Shown in pieces: positions 12,897 through 22,091 of a DNA stretch of 64,000 bases. The notes under the pieces are model-generated. The model did no database searches and was not told where the DNA came from. It saw nothing but the letters and a program-made list of their open reading frames with translations. Made by a program: the position numbers and the translations under genes. Each line of letters opens with the position of its first letter. The first letter of the stretch is position 1. This DNA comes from Pseudomonadales bacterium (GTDB lineage Bacteria; Pseudomonadota; Gammaproteobacteria; Pseudomonadales; UBA5518). The stretch spans positions 533,707 through 597,706 of the forward strand of contig JACKOP010000001.1 in assembly GCA_024234165.1 (NCBI GenBank), in the 5' to 3' direction.

Positions 12897-13887
12897 TTGA
12901 ACGCCGCTTCGCGCATCGTCGAACTCGAACAAACTAATGCGCAACTCACGGTGCAGATGGCCGCGATGACGCAGCAGTTTGGCGCCGAGATCGCCGCGCT
13001 GAAGCAGCAGCTCGACTGGTTCAAGCGCCAGCTCTTCGGGCAGAAGAGCGAGAAGCAGCTGAGCATCGATCCTGCCGTGCAGGGCAACCTGCTCGATGCA
13101 CTCGGTGTGCTTGAACCGCCGCAGAAGTCCCCACCGCCTCCCGAGCAGTCGATCACCTACACGCGCCGGGGCAAGGTGCGCGATGCGGCGGTGAACGACT
13201 CAGGATTGCGCTTTGGCCCCGATGTCACCCGCGACGTGATCACCATCGTCGATCCGGCGATTGCCGCCGTACCCGAGGAGCGACGCAAGCTGGTCTCTGA
13301 GCGCGTCAGCTACCGCCTGGCGCAGCGCCCGGGCAGCTACGGGATCATCGAGTACCACTACCAGACCTGGAAGCTGGTCGACGAGCAGCGCATCGTCAGC
13401 ACCCCGGCACCGGCCAGCGTACTCGAGCGCTGTGTGGCCGATGTGAGCCTGCTGGCCGGAATGCTCGTCGACAAGTTCTGCTACCACCTGCCGCTGTATC
13501 GCCAGCACCAGCGGATCGCCCAGTGTGGCATCCAGCTGAGCCGCACCAGCCTCGGCAACTGGAGCGGACGGGCCATCGATCTGCTGCGTCCCATCGCAGC
13601 CGCCCAGCACGCCCACATCCTCAGCGGATCGGTGGTAGCGATAGACGAGACCCCGATCAAGGCGGGACGCGAGAAGCAGGGCAAGATGCGCCAGGCCTAC
13701 CTCTGGCCGATCTACGGCGAGGACGACGAGATCGTCTTCCACTACGCGCCGACCCGGGCGCACCACCATGTCGAGAAGATCCTGGGGCCGGACTTCCGGG
13801 GAACGCTGCTCTCGGACGGCTACGCCGCCTACAGCGCCTATGCGGCACGCAAGGGTGGTATCACCCACGCGGGTTGTTGGGCGCATT
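12897..13887 (+). pseudogene. IS66 tnpC (DDE transposase), segment 1 of 3
   Basis: N-terminal coiled coil, LPLYRQ and DETP motifs. Ends at HAGCWAH, where the RIT element begins. Confidence 0.85.
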
Positions 13888-13909
13888 ATCCCGAGTCTGC
13901 AGTTATCCG
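13880..13909 (+). repeat. RIT left inverted repeat
   Basis: ggcgcattatcccgagtctgcagttatccg is the exact reverse complement of 22034-22063. Confidence 0.9.
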
Positions 13910-14028
13910 GAGTAGATGCATCAAGCAGCGGCTTCGTGTCACAAAGTAAGCGTTTTTTGTCCGGATAATGCGGCGGCGTCATCCGCATCGACCAGCCAGC
14001 GTTGTATTGACTGACGACCACGCGTTTC

Positions 14029-14388
14029 GTGGAGTGCGGGAGATGCCCGATGCGGCGACCCGTCGGTGTTCCGTATCGATTGACCGATGTCAAACACGTT
14101 TGGCGTCGTAATCACGGGCTGGGACGTCAGTCGCTCGCCGTCTACGAGTATTGGCTGTATCGCTTTGCTCGCTACTGCGAGCGGTACTCACTGGATCAGC
14201 GCACCGAGCTGACACAGTGCGGTGCCGAGCGCTTCGCGCGCTGGTGGCAATTGCACGGCAGTTGTCGTCACGGCCGGATCGAGGTTGCGACCGCCGCATC
14301 ACACGGACCGTTGCGCGCATGGGCGTTTGCCCTCTCGATGTTAGGCGAGCCAATGCCGCCGTGGAGCCCCCCCACAGGCTGCGCCACC
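14029..14388 (+). pseudogene. RIT recombinase A (ritA-like), N-terminal part, cut by IS3-Y
   Basis: N-terminal SAM-like integrase region. Continues at 19078 after IS3-Y. The two parts are out of frame by 1 nt unless the C7 run at 14367-14373 is C6. Confidence 0.65.
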
Positions 14389-14668
14389 TGTCTTGCCTCC
14401 CAGTTCCACTGGACCCGCTTGACCCGGTTTTGTGAGAGACCGAACCGGGGCGTGTCGGCCATGCCCGTCGGCATAGTCGCCATCTCGCATTCTCTCTGCA
14501 AGGCAGGCGCAAAGCACCTCGTTGTGCCTGTGTACCCTGTGGGCGCGAGGGGTAAGAGTCGTGGGCACGCGGTGGGCAACAGGGATGTTGTCCACGGCGT
14601 GTCCACACGGCCCGCAGGGCTTGCCCCGCTCCGCAGGACGCGTCCACAAGTGCACAGGCCTGTGCATC

Positions 14669-19971: not shown

Positions 19972-20936
19972 ACGCTCTGGCAGCGGCGCACCTTGGGCAG
20001 GAAGTCACCGCCTTCCTGAAGTACAAACGCGCGCTCGGGCATTCGTACCGACGCGGCGAGGCGACGCTGCGCAGCTTCGAGCACTTTGCCCGCCACGGTA
20101 GAGGACCGCGGTCTCGGATCGACTTGGAGGCTACGATCCGGACGTGGCTGTTACGCCGCCCCGGACGCAAGCCGGTCACCCTTGCGAACGACCTCGGCGC
20201 GGTGCGGCAGTTCTGCTTGTACCTGCGCCGTAGTGACCCCGCGGCGTTTGTGCCGCCGGTCAGTTTGGCGCCGCAGACTGAATCGCTCTACGTCCCGTAT
20301 ATTTTCTCGCTGGAGGAGATCCGTCGGCTGATCCATGCGACACAGCACTATCACGGACACAATTTCTGGCCCGAAATGTTCCGGATGTTGCTGATTGCGA
20401 CCTATTGCACGGGTTTGCGCTTGGGCGAGACAGTCCGGCTCCTGCGGTCCGATCTCGACAATGCGCGCTGGGTGCTACATATCCGTGAGAGCAAGGGGCG
20501 AAGCCGTGATGTGCCGTTCCAGGCCGACTTGGCACAGGTGTTCGCGCGCTATCTTCGCCAACGCGACGAACTGCTGCATGCCCTTGGCCGAGCGAACGAA
20601 CCGGCACTGTTTGTCGGACTGAACGGGGACGGCGTCACGGTGCGTGCGACATCGGATGCGATCCGCCGCCTTTTGCGCCGGCTGGGCATGAAGAGCCCGA
20701 TGGGCCGCTGCGGACCCCGCCCGTACGACCTGCGTCACGCATTTGCCGTCCACCGACTCACGGCCTGGTACCACGACGGTGTCGACTTGCACGCCAGCCT
20801 GCCATGGCTCTCGGCCTACATGGGGCACGTCAACGTACTCGGTACCGAAGTCTATCTTCACGCTACGGCGGAGCTGCTCGAAATTGCCGCTGATCGTTTT
20901 GCCGCGCGGTTCGCGCAGCCGGGAGGGTGGTCATGA
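19968..20936 (+). CDS. RIT recombinase B (tyrosine recombinase)
   Basis: 322 aa with TGLRLGE, DLRHAFA and MGHVNVLGTEVYL motifs. Overlaps both neighbouring genes. Confidence 0.85.
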   Translation: MNALAAAHLGQEVTAFLKYKRALGHSYRRGEATLRSFEHFARHGRGPRSRIDLEATIRTWLLRRPGRKPVTLANDLGAVRQFCLYLRRSDPAAFVPPVSLAPQTESLYVPYIFSLEEIRRLIHATQHYHGHNFWPEMFRMLLIATYCTGLRLGETVRLLRSDLDNARWVLHIRESKGRSRDVPFQADLAQVFARYLRQRDELLHALGRANEPALFVGLNGDGVTVRATSDAIRRLLRRLGMKSPMGRCGPRPYDLRHAFAVHRLTAWYHDGVDLHASLPWLSAYMGHVNVLGTEVYLHATAELLEIAADRFAARFAQPGGWS

Positions 20937-22000
20937 GCAGAGTTTGCGATGCCACTCTTCTGTCGTCGGTCGAAGCATACTTTCGCGGCTACCTGATCCA
21001 GACCCGAGGCACCAGTGCTCACACGATCCGTGCCTATCGCGACACGTTGCGACTGCTGTTCAGGTTCCTCGCCGACCGGCGCAACTGTCCGGTCGCAGAA
21101 CTTACCCTCGATGACCTTCACGTCGATGCCATCCTTGCATTCTTGGCACATCTCGAGACGGTGCGGGCCAATAGTGTCGCGAGCCGTAATGCCCGCTTGG
21201 CGGCCATCCGTAGCTTCTTCCGCCACCTTGTCGAACACGACCTGCCACGCGCCGGACAATATCAACGCGTGCTGTCGATACCGAATAAGCGAGCACATCT
21301 CGGCGCAGCGCAGTACCTCGAGCCGCCGGATGTTAAATCACTCCTCACCCAGCCCGACCGCACCACTACGGCTGGACGCCGCGACTACGCGCTGATGCTC
21401 TTCTTGTACAACACCGGCGCTCGTATCAGCGAGGCGCTCGGCGTACGCGCCGAACACCTGTCCTTGATCCTGCCGCGACGCGTGCGGCTGTTCGGCAAGG
21501 GAGGCAAGGAGCGACTGTGCCCTCTGTGGCATGAGACGACAGAGGCGCTGGCGCAACTGCTGGCAGTTGGCTCAGACTCACCCGAAGGTTACGTGTTCTG
21601 TAACCGAAACGGCCAGCAGTTGACCCGAGATGGAGCTGCATACCTGTTACGTAAATATGCGGGTATGGCAGTTCGTACCTGCCCACAGCTACGCCGCCGA
21701 CGCATCACACCTCACGTTCTGCGCCACAGCTGCGCAGTGGCACTGCTGCAGGCCGGTGTCGATATCACGGTAATACGCGACTATCTCGGACACGCCAGCA
21801 TTACCACCACCAGTCGCTACGTCGCGACGAATTTGCAGATGAAACGCGACGCACTGGAGTTATTCTGGAGCCGATCGGGACTTCTCCCGACTCGTCCGCG
21901 GCCGTGGAAGCCGAAGCCCGATGTGCTCACCTATCTCGCGTCGGTCGGATCGACGCCCCATTATTATCCGGAGCAATCAGATTGTGAAACTCGAAAATGA
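20927..22000 (+). CDS. RIT recombinase C (tyrosine recombinase, XerC/D-like)
   Basis: 357 aa with an N-terminal SAM-like domain (HTIRAYRDTLRLLFRF), RRDYALMLFLYNTGARISE, HVLRHS and LGHASITTTSRY. Confidence 0.85.
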   Translation: MVMSRVCDATLLSSVEAYFRGYLIQTRGTSAHTIRAYRDTLRLLFRFLADRRNCPVAELTLDDLHVDAILAFLAHLETVRANSVASRNARLAAIRSFFRHLVEHDLPRAGQYQRVLSIPNKRAHLGAAQYLEPPDVKSLLTQPDRTTTAGRRDYALMLFLYNTGARISEALGVRAEHLSLILPRRVRLFGKGGKERLCPLWHETTEALAQLLAVGSDSPEGYVFCNRNGQQLTRDGAAYLLRKYAGMAVRTCPQLRRRRITPHVLRHSCAVALLQAGVDITVIRDYLGHASITTTSRYVATNLQMKRDALELFWSRSGLLPTRPRPWKPKPDVLTYLASVGSTPHYYPEQSDCETRK

Positions 22001-22033
22001 GCCGAGCGTGACGCGCGCTCTGCAGCGTAACTA

Positions 22034-22063
22034 CGGATAACTGCAGACTCGGGATAATGCGCC
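22034..22063 (-). repeat. RIT right inverted repeat
   Basis: cggataactgcagactcgggataatgcgcc is the exact reverse complement of 13880-13909. Confidence 0.9.
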
Positions 22064-22091
22064 TTATCCAGAGATCTGGATAAGGCGCATT
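22056..22091. repeat. Perfect 17+2+17 palindrome spanning the RIT right junction
   Basis: aatgcgccttatccaga ga tctggataaggcgcatt. The outer 8 nt of the right arm are the tnpC target sequence. Confidence 0.9.

Follow-up and report, generated by a model that had tools for sequence, protein, structure and literature searches.

Junctions of a defective RIT element in an IS66 tnpC gene suggest site-specific recombination within a 6-bp spacer

A RIT element in the tnpC gene of an IS66 insertion sequence

A stretch of 64,000 nucleotides from a Pseudomonadales bacterium (contig JACKOP010000001.1, positions 533,707 to 597,706), here called the window, carries a RIT element (ritA-ritB-ritC) of an already known element class. 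The element is defective and interrupts tnpC of an insertion sequence (IS) of the IS66 family, of which tnpB is located directly upstream. An earlier note, made from the letters of the window alone, had recognized the RIT class, which is borne out by three open reading frames (ORFs) of the Phage_integrase family, by inverted repeats and by homology to RIT trios, but it had overlooked that ritA is disrupted and that the point of insertion within IS66 tnpC is specific and conserved. The two parts of tnpC are designated T_L (5' part) and T_R (continuation). T_L ends with ...GGT TGT TGG GCG CA, corresponding to G-C-W-A-(H), and T_R starts with ...T TGC CGC CGA GGC TTC, corresponding to (H)-C-R-R-G-F; the insertion point is located in the codons C-W-A/H (the slash marks the point of insertion, here and below).

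The empty site was obtained by a protein search with the reconstructed TnpC, followed by look-up of the contig. An uninterrupted TnpC homologue of 543 aa (P0001, 95% identity) was found, in which CWAHCRRGFEQA is contiguous and which reads through ...ASCWAHCRRGFEQA... at this position. The DNA encoding it (L109) is 96% identical to the flanks of the element in the window and reads ...TTGCTGGGCGCA/TTGTCGCC... (in longer form ...GAGTTGCTGGGCGCA/TTGTCGCCGAGG). Because the flanks match L109 up to 13885 and then again from 22090, the limits of the RIT are 13886-22089 (equivalently 13880-22083), which corresponds to 8204 bp; these limits correct those of the earlier note. The intact tnpC of L109 contains a single copy of GGCGCA and lacks a module of 20 bp (ttatccagagatctggataa) that is present at the right junction in the window. 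The module is not IS66 sequence, which disposes of the possibility, raised in the earlier note, that the extra 20 bp belong to ordinary IS66 tnpC. A second uninterrupted IS66 target was searched for within the window and none was found. Plasmid-borne tnpC relatives, identified as distant blastn matches of the tnpC 5' part, were rejected as empty site since they were only 65-71% identical.

The trio is bounded by a terminal inverted repeat of 34 nt (13880-13913 and 22030-22063, 97% complementary), in agreement with the earlier description. The hexamer GGATAA/TTATCC was observed 16 times in the window versus 11 ± 3.4 expected, and 8 of these 16 copies, all of them noticed before, lie at most about 230 bp from one or the other end (13886, 13903, 13963, 21964, 22035, 22052, 22064, and 22078). 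They represent three half-sites per end, at 0, 17 and ~77 bp from the tip (the first two in direct, the third in inverted orientation), and two more in the module. The perfect palindrome at the right junction (22056-22072 and 22075-22091; 17+2+17, 100%) had been considered unlikely to be due to chance, and by arithmetic (64000 x 4^-17) only about 4e-6 such palindromes are indeed expected in 64 kb. The repeated unit is the 6-mer GGCGCA, designated X, which is present in direct orientation at both junctions and as the inverted copy TGCGCC (X') at the right one (Table 1). The repetition of target sequence had thus been seen correctly, but the repeat is a 6-mer and not an 8-mer: the extra TT/AA, which makes the palindrome 36 instead of 32 bp long, is a coincidence of the target codons CAT TGC in the window and is missing in relatives, which mostly have C or T after the outer X and then different bases. 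Rfam, promoter and terminator scans of the element ends yielded nothing.

The three ORFs with Pfam Phage_integrase matches (19021-19971, 19968-20936, and 20927-22000) are co-oriented and overlap. Aligned to the intact RitA (415 aa) of a related locus, L001 (loci are numbered with L throughout), the two ritA fragments are colinear and cover aa 1-115 and 118-415, respectively, and the 3' part comprises the second core-binding domain and the catalytic domain. RitA has been described as the long member of the trio, with ~410 aa and two successive core-binding domains, and Rit proteins as Xer-like simple tyrosine recombinases (PMC8138268). The 4-bp overlap of ritA and ritB reported before was found, but the 10-bp overlap of ritB and ritC followed from taking the first in-frame GTG; from the ATG at 20933 these genes share the same 4-bp ATGA overlap, and gene callers elsewhere choose the resulting 355-aa form. 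The Phage_integrase profile was matched nearly end to end in RitA, RitB and RitC, and putative catalytic motifs of the type R...H/Y-x-x-R...H...Y could be read by eye in RitA (GRRD...HALRHT...SAYLRV), RitB (GLRLGE...YDLRHAF...EVYLH) and RitC (GARISE...HVLRHS...SRYV). RitC is 63-81% identical to RitC of L001-L008. In Mesorhizobium japonicum MAFF303099, a strain named as RIT host by Van Houdt et al. (PMC3414803), pMLa carries a cluster of three recombinase genes, and RitC is 54.5% identical to the product of the third of these.

The length of 8.2 kb instead of ~3.5 kb is due to a block of nested IS elements that splits ritA, and within this block Pfam matches to rve/rve_3, Transposase_20, DDE_Tnp_1, DEDD_Tnp_IS110 and HTH_Tnp_1 were found. 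Uninterrupted complete relatives measure 3420-3531 bp, and L003, L005 and L008 are longer. At the ends of the IS3-family element in ritA no clear target duplication was seen, and a remainder of ~36 nt (14374-14409), which follows the last codon homologous to ritA and precedes the IS end, could be assigned to neither. A search with the IS block returned only fragmentary IS110 matches, and a megablast of the rit trio against plasmids gave no match. Since the nested IS elements split ritA, the copy in the window is inactive and non-autonomous. Its exact RitB was identified in 10 public contigs, all of which represent one locus with the identical nested IS block; therefore, there is no evidence of recent mobility, and the copy is a fixed, vertically inherited fossil. 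The copy in L008 (Marinobacter sp. ELB17) is defective too, as its ritC (3770-4781) is a frameshifted pseudogene.

Table 1. Coordinates of the RIT element, its junctions and the interrupted tnpC in the window.
Feature	Position	Strand	Basis or remark
IS66-family tnpC, 5' part (T_L)	12897..13885	+	Pfam DDE_Tnp_IS66, profile 2-155; L109 583-1081 at 96%
Target sequence around the insertion position (CA/Y)			TGYTGGGCNCAYNNNCGNCG
X at simple junction, GGCGCA (6-bp spacer, putative crossover sequence; also last 6 bp of T_L)	13880..13885	+	sequence
Left terminal inverted repeat	13886..13913	+	direct half-sites TTATCCCGAG (13886-13895) and TTATCCGGAG (13903-13912)
Subterminal inverted half-site GTCCGGATAA, ~77 bp from tip	13959..13968	-	reverse complement TTATCCGGAC
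ritA, 5' fragment, codons 1-115, first core-binding domain	14029..14373	+	tblastn, 70% identity to 415-aa RitA of L001
Nested IS block splitting ritA, ~4.69 kb	14374..19062	-
IS3-family element	ends about 14410/19058; orfA 19017-18706, rve orfB 15655-14669	-
IS110-family element inside the IS3-family element	18514-17729 and 16285-15677
DDE_Tnp_1 IS splitting the IS110-family element	about 16286-17728
ritA, 3' part, codons 118-415	19063-19968 (ORF to 19971)	+	tblastn, 75% to RitA of L001; Pfam Phage_integrase 3.7e-21
ritB, 322 aa, ATGA overlap with ritA	19968..20936	+	Pfam Phage_integrase 1.3e-14
ritC, 355 aa from ATG 20933 (357 aa from GTG 20927)	20933..22000	+	Pfam Phage_integrase 5.6e-33; SAM-like N-terminal domain
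Subterminal half-site TTATCCGGAG, right end	21964..21973	+	mirrors 13959-13968
Right terminal inverted repeat	22030..22057	+	half-sites CTACGGATAA (22031-22040) and CTCGGGATAA (22048-22057)
dif-like core CTCGGGATAA-TGCGCC-TTATCCAGAG	22048-22073		pattern GGATAA-N6-TTATCC
Inner X', TGCGCC, reverse complement of X	22058..22063	+	conserved in 29 complex ends
20-bp module, two back-to-back half-sites TTATCCAGAG and ATCTGGATAA	22064..22083	.	absent from uninterrupted tnpC of L109
Outer X, GGCGCA	22084..22089	+	adjoins T_R
IS66 tnpC, continuation (T_R)	22090..22446	+	Pfam DDE_Tnp_IS66, profile 154-275; L109 1082-1438 at 96.6%

Junctions in related RIT elements

Related elements were collected in two ways: a scan with RitC of a set holding a single genome from each species gave 25 loci, of which eight are close (63-80% identity), and a metagenome scan with a RitC alignment gave 80 further ones (43-69%). 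The reconstructed TnpC proteins were used as probes for the RIT flanks. Fragments of IS66 tnpC flank the RIT in 48 loci and are broken at one common residue. From the 68 loci of the clade, 46 were recognized automatically as IS66-type and most others on inspection (variants CMAH, CVAH, CLTH, CFRH, and CNDH). Finished plasmids agree with this, namely pMAQU02 of Marinobacter nauticus VT8 (GCMAH, with IS66 tnpA/tnpB adjoining) and a plasmid of Rhizobium leguminosarum.

Read in tnpC sense, the layout T_L-X-IR...IR'-X'-20 bp-X-T_R (IR, inverted repeat) is present in every close relative. The junction T_L-X-tip is called simple and the junction tip-X'-20 bp-X-T_R complex; 26 simple and 29 complex junctions were collected, with 26 and 29 distinct flank sequences, respectively. 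At the left junction the consensus is T_L ...TGY TG/G-NNN-CA/TTATCCNGAG..., followed by the rit genes in either orientation, and at the right junction ...CTCNGGATAA/TGNNNC/TTAT-N12-ATAA/G-NNN-CA/YNN CGN CGN... T_R (slashes here separate the parts of the junction). The consensus of X at the 26 simple ends is GGCnCA. All 26 simple ends adjoin T_L and all 29 complex ends adjoin T_R: without exception the module takes the 3' side with respect to tnpC, independent of the direction of the rit genes, for which ratios of 14:12 at simple and 19:10 at complex ends relative to tnpC were counted. When the segment from TTATCC up to and including the outer X was deleted in silico, a TnpC frame of 305-578 aa was restored in 6/6 relatives, with the break at CW(A/V)/H. 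Five of these frames comprise 479-578 aa, and the shortest one, in L008, is short because its left flank is short.

The module always has 20 bp (TTAT-N12-ATAA), frequently with GAGCTC in its centre. Its halves share the logo TTATccnGaG, and tips and module halves together share TTATC(c)nGAG. With the junctions of other copies aligned, the palindrome was present at 29/29 complex ends and GGATAA-N6-TTATCC with a constant 6-bp spacer in every relative. The match is not always perfect, as 1-3 mismatches in the 20-bp stem were observed in 20/29 modules and 13/29 are imperfect in X. Between the close relatives L004/L005 and L014/L017 the module is inverted. The 17-bp spacing of the left-end half-sites (logo TTATCccGAG) is repeated in L001, L003 and L004-L008, and the subterminal half-site is found at a matching offset in L001, L003, L006, L007 and L008. 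These conserved offsets and the half-site layout are consistent with the earlier suggestion that the GGATAA repeats are recombinase binding sites.

RitC proteins of the window, L001, L003, L004 and L007 are 63-83% identical, whereas the TnpC proteins interrupted by these elements are only 29-45% identical. In the genome of L007 a full RIT (7621-11151) is located in one IS66 and a second, truncated RIT (13180-13680) in another IS66 copy; the latter consists of only the ritA-side end with the complex module, and its body is oriented opposite to that of the full copy. Because TnpC is far more diverged than RitC and because of these two insertions in L007, it is concluded that the site is chosen by the element and not inherited, and that the insertions are independent.

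The earlier note had considered an insertion at a sequence that mimics the element terminus. The consensus sequences of the target arms, ...GcnGgnTGcTG in T_L and cgnncGnCGnaAgTTc in T_R, have no resemblance to the half-site TTATCCNGAG; therefore, the target mimics the element only in the spacer. Target arms as mimics of element half-sites were rejected, as the logos are without similarity outside X.

The three copies of X were compared in 14 complete elements, including that of the window. All three agree in 5 elements, the window among them; in 4 (L001, L008, L051, and L082) the outer X pairs with the inner one and the simple-end X differs; in one (L005) the simple-end X pairs with the inner one and the outer differs; in one (L042) the inner X deviates from two matching direct copies; and in 3 (L007, L026, and L048) all copies differ. 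Simple-end and outer X are unlike in 8/14, by 1-3 of 6 bases. Since every variant resembles a target codon triplet of IS66 (GCN, GTN, AGC etc.), X is exchanged with targets and does not represent a fill-in duplication. The 6 spacer bases are the only bases of mixed element and target origin, which lends indirect support to cleavage at the spacer borders. At the 29 complex ends the outer X is the exact reverse complement of the inner X' in 16 cases versus 7.0 expected by shuffling (P<1e-4), and the G at its first base, which is constrained by the Trp codon, is lost in 7/29 outer copies versus 1/26 simple-end copies (P=0.054). As judged from this excess of pairing and from the departures from the Trp codon, the outer X seems usually to be brought by the element. 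The idea that target DNA completes the palindrome should then probably be reversed, as the outer copy mostly pairs with the inner one. For the window itself the origin of the outer X is undecidable, because all three copies are identical there. The palindrome could be kept matched by retention of the element spacer through transposition or by correction within a hairpin. The mismatch rate is about 0.15 per base both in the terminal repeats and in X, with the 30-bp windows used for the repeats overrunning their well-conserved part and L005 being disrupted.

Probable recombination within the spacer and alternative explanations

From the comparison of these junctions, the RIT has probably been integrated by site-specific recombination through tyrosine recombinases, with the crossover within the 6-bp spacer, between the core formed by the joined ends of the element and the CWAH codons of the target. 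The recombination sites would be dif-like cores in which half-sites of ~10 bp (TTATCCNGAG) are inverted around the spacer X (G-NNN-CA). The element would carry one complete core at one end, composed of the tip half-site, X' and the first module half, followed by the second module half as an additional half-site and by X. If the ends are joined, in a circle or in a folded strand, the second module half, X and the opposite tip would make up a second complete core, the mirror of the first. Crossover of this second core with T_L-X-T_R within X, after cleavage that would take place at the spacer borders, would yield T_L-X-IR...IR'-X'-module-X-T_R, in which no target sequence is lost and no true target duplication arises. 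For the window, arms of ~110 bp were computed for the near-perfect palindrome that would result from joining the ends. The random orientation of the element body may be explained by this near-palindromic joined form with its two equivalent inverted cores, the fixed position of the module on the T_R side by the asymmetric spacer, which would set the alignment, and the inverted modules in L004/L005 and L014/L017 by the use of either core. The half-sites of the element and the two unlike arms of the target may be allotted to different members of the recombinase trio, which fits a four-arm synapse. From the two possibilities named in the earlier note, the junction left by recombination, with a core of inverted arms around a short spacer, is thus favoured over insertion at a mimic.

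Several points weigh against recombination of this kind. The joined-end junction IR'-X'-module-X-IR was found in none of 121 loci, and mobilome sequencing detected exonuclease-resistant RIT DNA and no circle junction reads (PMC5737581); both points count weakly, because the junction would be a long palindrome, which is difficult to map, and assemblies are a poor source for it. In L032, L036, L047, L067 and L099 the module is present at both RIT ends, with the 3' halves of different IS66 copies as flanks (another target in L099), and no contigs with two simple ends were found versus 4-5 with the module at both ends. This is unexplained, because recombination between copies or chimeric assembly should yield both kinds. 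The three X copies are related to each other in several different ways, and no single simple rule fits them. Element X and target X differ at 5/6 positions in a miniature element that neighbours the RIT in the window (see below) and at 4/6 in L094, which a classical, homology-dependent double-strand exchange would not tolerate. Finally, the proposal rests on the comparison of sequences, and the copy in the window cannot be active. In the searchable literature no paper was found that links RITs to IS66 or gives the 6-bp junction rule, though a prior description in Ricker et al. 2013 is possible.

A variant with the same sites and enzymes, in which the integrating form is a folded single strand, one strand pair is exchanged and replication completes the product, is a possibility to be taken seriously but has the smaller share of the probability. 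The other form of the intermediate would be a double-stranded circle with an exchange tolerant of heterology, as in Tn916, Tn554 and the SE elements (strand-biased circularizing integrative elements). IR'-X'-module-X-IR would fold into a hairpin with one dif-like core as its stem, and linearization of this hairpin at a spacer border would give the observed layout, with the target X at the simple end and the element X as outer copy. This polarity is the commonest informative pattern (L001, L008, L051, L082, L094, and the miniature element in the window), and the variant would also tolerate the nearly complete spacer heterology of the miniature element, account for the complementarity of outer and inner X, suit the constant 20-bp module with its frequent GAGCTC centre, and agree with exonuclease-resistant DNA that lacks a circle junction (PMC5737581). 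L005 and L011, however, have the opposite polarity (simple X equals inner, outer differs), in L042 and L013 simple and outer X agree and are both unlike the inner one, and the ratio of 6:2 is not statistically distinct from the 1:1 of a segregating double-stranded heteroduplex. The imperfect modules described above also speak against a folded strand, and a source of the single strand is without evidence. That the element is instead a linear molecule with covalently closed hairpin ends, as produced by telomere resolvases, and that the palindrome is a replicated or opened hairpin tip, seems very unlikely. The palindrome does adjoin one end, and hairpin intermediates were proposed by Nielsen et al. 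from exonuclease survival without circle junctions (PMC5737581), but the module occurs at one end only and is set by the polarity of the target and not by the element, while the opposite junction is a plain spacer plus half-site. Moreover, the centre of symmetry is 10 bp away from the conserved 6-bp spacers and often itself not palindromic, and non-palindromic spacers cannot fold back without mismatches.

Two further explanations dispense with recombination at a chosen site and can hardly be maintained. In the first, the common site would be due to shared ancestry, namely a single ancient insertion of a RIT in IS66 that was inherited and spread as a composite, with tnpC provided in trans. An IS66::RIT would keep the IS66 ends and could be mobilized in trans, and the 10/10 contigs with the exact RitB do represent one locus, so that the copy in the window is vertically inherited. 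Common descent conflicts, however, with the divergence of the interrupted TnpC relative to RitC, with the distinctness of all 26 and 29 flanks and the occurrence of both body orientations, with X copies that are unlike between the two junctions, with the two opposite insertions in different IS66 copies of L007, and with other RIT clades, which obey the junction rule in unrelated genes. Just as improbable is the view that staggered cuts produced the 6-mer (or 8-mer) as an ordinary duplication of the target site, with the palindrome as a fixed terminal feature or a product of chance. Tyrosine recombinases do not make target duplications, and the element encodes no other recombinases, the DDE genes inside it being later IS insertions. 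A duplication would suit the finding that the direct X copies are identical to each other in the window and in 4 further complete elements, but these copies differ in the 8 elements mentioned above and at 5/6 positions in the miniature element, the Trp-codon constraint is broken mainly at the outer copy, and chance is a poor explanation for a perfect 36-bp palindrome. DDE-type transposons that duplicate their target have identical direct repeats at both junctions, unlike 8/14 complete elements, and no DDE transposase belongs to the RIT.

Recombination within the spacer has parallels in known systems. The dif site of E. coli, GGTGCGCATAA-TGTATA-TTATGTTAAAT, is cleaved by XerC and XerD at the borders of its 6-bp centre. 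RITs resemble Xer/dif and the CTX phage (IMEX) in their Xer-like recombinases, in a core of the type ...ATAA-6 bp-TTAT... with arms of ~10-11 bp, and in the use of one specific integration site; distant RIT clades use TTATGTTGAG, which is Xer/dif-like as well. The attP1 and attP2 sites of CTX are likewise two inverted dif-like sites able to fold on each other, but they are ~90 nt apart whereas the RIT sites abut (0 bp). In contrast to Xer/dif and CTX, RITs bring recombinases of their own, three in number, instead of relying on the XerCD of the host, and their target is a transposase gene and not the chromosomal dif, with arms unlike those of the element. In Tn916 and CTnDOT the coupling sequences form an overlap of 6-7 bp that may be heterologous, and the heteroduplex joints segregate on replication; these elements differ from RITs by a single integrase with an arm-binding domain plus Xis, by low target specificity and by the lack of a palindromic end. 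Folded single-strand exchange is known for attP(+) of the CTX phage with XerCD and for integron attC, an imperfect palindrome that folds to a hairpin for a tyrosine recombinase, upon which one strand is exchanged and replication completes the product. Integron cassettes, however, are without recombinase genes or terminal repeats, and their strand is defined by extrahelical bases, for which there is no evidence in RITs.

Tn554, SE and GInts insert site-specifically without duplication, and a 6-bp sequence of their former location ends up on one side of the new insertion (PMC10214605). They share with RITs the two or three tyrosine recombinases, and the carried 6 bp match the outer X of RITs that is probably element-borne; they differ by asymmetric ends without long terminal inverted repeats or a palindromic double core, by additional non-recombinase proteins (TnpC/Srap, Tfp/GinC) and by targets that are not IS genes. 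For RITs themselves, an inverted repeat with an 'overlapping palindromic sequence' and 'no convincing' binding sites was reported by Van Houdt et al. (PMC3414803), and palindromes of 47-51 bp with the suggestion of a hairpin by Nielsen et al. (PMC5737581). In a comparison from 2023, target specificity and mode of movement were given as 'not tested', and mobility had not been reproduced (PMC10214605). The elements studied here are like published RITs in their co-oriented, overlapping ritA-ritB-ritC trio, the ~415-aa RitA, a length of ~3.5 kb in relatives and terminal inverted repeats. They differ in that the half-site, the 6-bp spacer, the module, its fixed side and the IS66 CWAH target could be derived from ~55 junctions, and in that the copy in the window is defective.

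Other RIT clades, neighbouring elements and meaning

In distant RIT clades (37-48% RitC identity) the layout T_L-X-IR...IR'-X'-20 bp-X-T_R is kept, with terminal repeats matching at 28-30/30 bases, but with different half-sites (TTATGTTG, TAATGTTGAG) and a different X. The insertions in L011, L013, L017, L062 and L096 occupy precise positions in istB and in genes for an IS21 IstA-like transposase, a YhcG nuclease of the PDDEXK type, a Toprim/DUF7146 protein and an IS1380-like DDE transposase. A common conserved right flank (...TCCA[AG]C[CG]GCTTG...) within a gene was also observed in L086, L090 and L094. Van Houdt et al. described single cases of RITs in a Tn6049-like transposase and in radC of ICE Tn6054 (PMC3414803). 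From these cases and the targets of the distant clades, RITs seem to be directed to conserved motifs of coding sequences, often those of other mobile elements. It is tempting, though rather speculative, to regard RITs as site-specific hyperparasites, each clade being tuned to the DNA of one conserved motif of a transposase or plasmid gene (CWAH and GRxNWLF of IS66, IS21 istA/istB, IS1380-like, Toprim), with folded-hairpin single-strand exchange, little need for spacer homology, divided roles of the recombinases and gene-less derivatives that are served in trans.

A gene-less element of 610 bp (22447-23056) with RIT-type ends follows the RIT 357 bp further downstream, within the same copy of IS66 tnpC. 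It has a perfect inverted repeat of 29 bp (TTATGCACGGttcactgTTATGGAAGG...), the 17-bp half-site spacing of the RIT and a perfect terminal 32-bp palindrome TTTCTG-TTATGGAAAGCTTTCCATAA-CAGAAA (23025-23056). It interrupts the codons G-R-R/N-W-L-F, for which the empty site is visible in L109, and its simple-end ACGGCG and outer CAGAAA differ at 5/6 positions. A diverged counterpart was found in L008 (about 5300-5939), in the same tnpC motif and with TCGAAA at all three positions. This element looks like a miniature RIT mobilized in trans.

An element of 2.6 kb was observed in L005 (11116-13706) and on pMLa (L107, about 5605-8232), encoding a 310-aa tyrosine recombinase and a 402-aa IS91-family transposase (Y2_Tnp and Zn_Tnp_IS91). 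Its insertion point lies precisely between X' and the TTATC half-site that follows in the RIT core; the hosts of the two copies are unrelated, and both orientations occur. Its termini TTGGAC...AAAAACGCTCT are identical in L005 and L107. Fragments of its ends abut RIT repeats in the metagenome contigs L055 and L059, and this IS91-type element seems to target the RIT core site itself. The RIT of L003 (1937-9276) is 7.3 kb long and not 3.5 kb and holds a 32-bp palindrome TGGCGC-TAATTCCGCCGGCGGAATTA-TCGTCA at 7906-7937, which suggests that a second RIT-type element is nested in it or adjoins it. Beyond the IS66 element of the window, an ORF of 547 aa with a weak DDE_Tnp_1 match (23341-24984, minus strand) is followed further on by a DDE_Tnp_1_4 transposase; the surroundings of the RIT are a dense pile of IS elements.

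RITs are widespread in bacterial chromosomes and plasmids, and their movement has never been reproduced after some 15 years (PMC10214605). The junction rule supplies defined experimental parts, namely a 10-bp half-site, a 6-bp crossover, a 52-bp double core and a target of ~20-30 bp that can be synthesized. It explains the presence of RITs in IS-rich islands and plasmids and the occurrence of both orientations, and circle junctions may have escaped detection because the junction would be a long palindrome. If spacer homology is dispensable, the system would be of possible interest for the engineering of compact site-specific integrases. The interest of the copy in the window lies in its junctions, which, read together with ~55 others, bear on the mechanism of the RIT family. 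Targeting the codons of the catalytic motif of a transposase would represent a safe-haven and hitch-hiking strategy comparable to that of Tn7 at glmS and of homing elements, and RITs would then be a natural antagonist of IS66.

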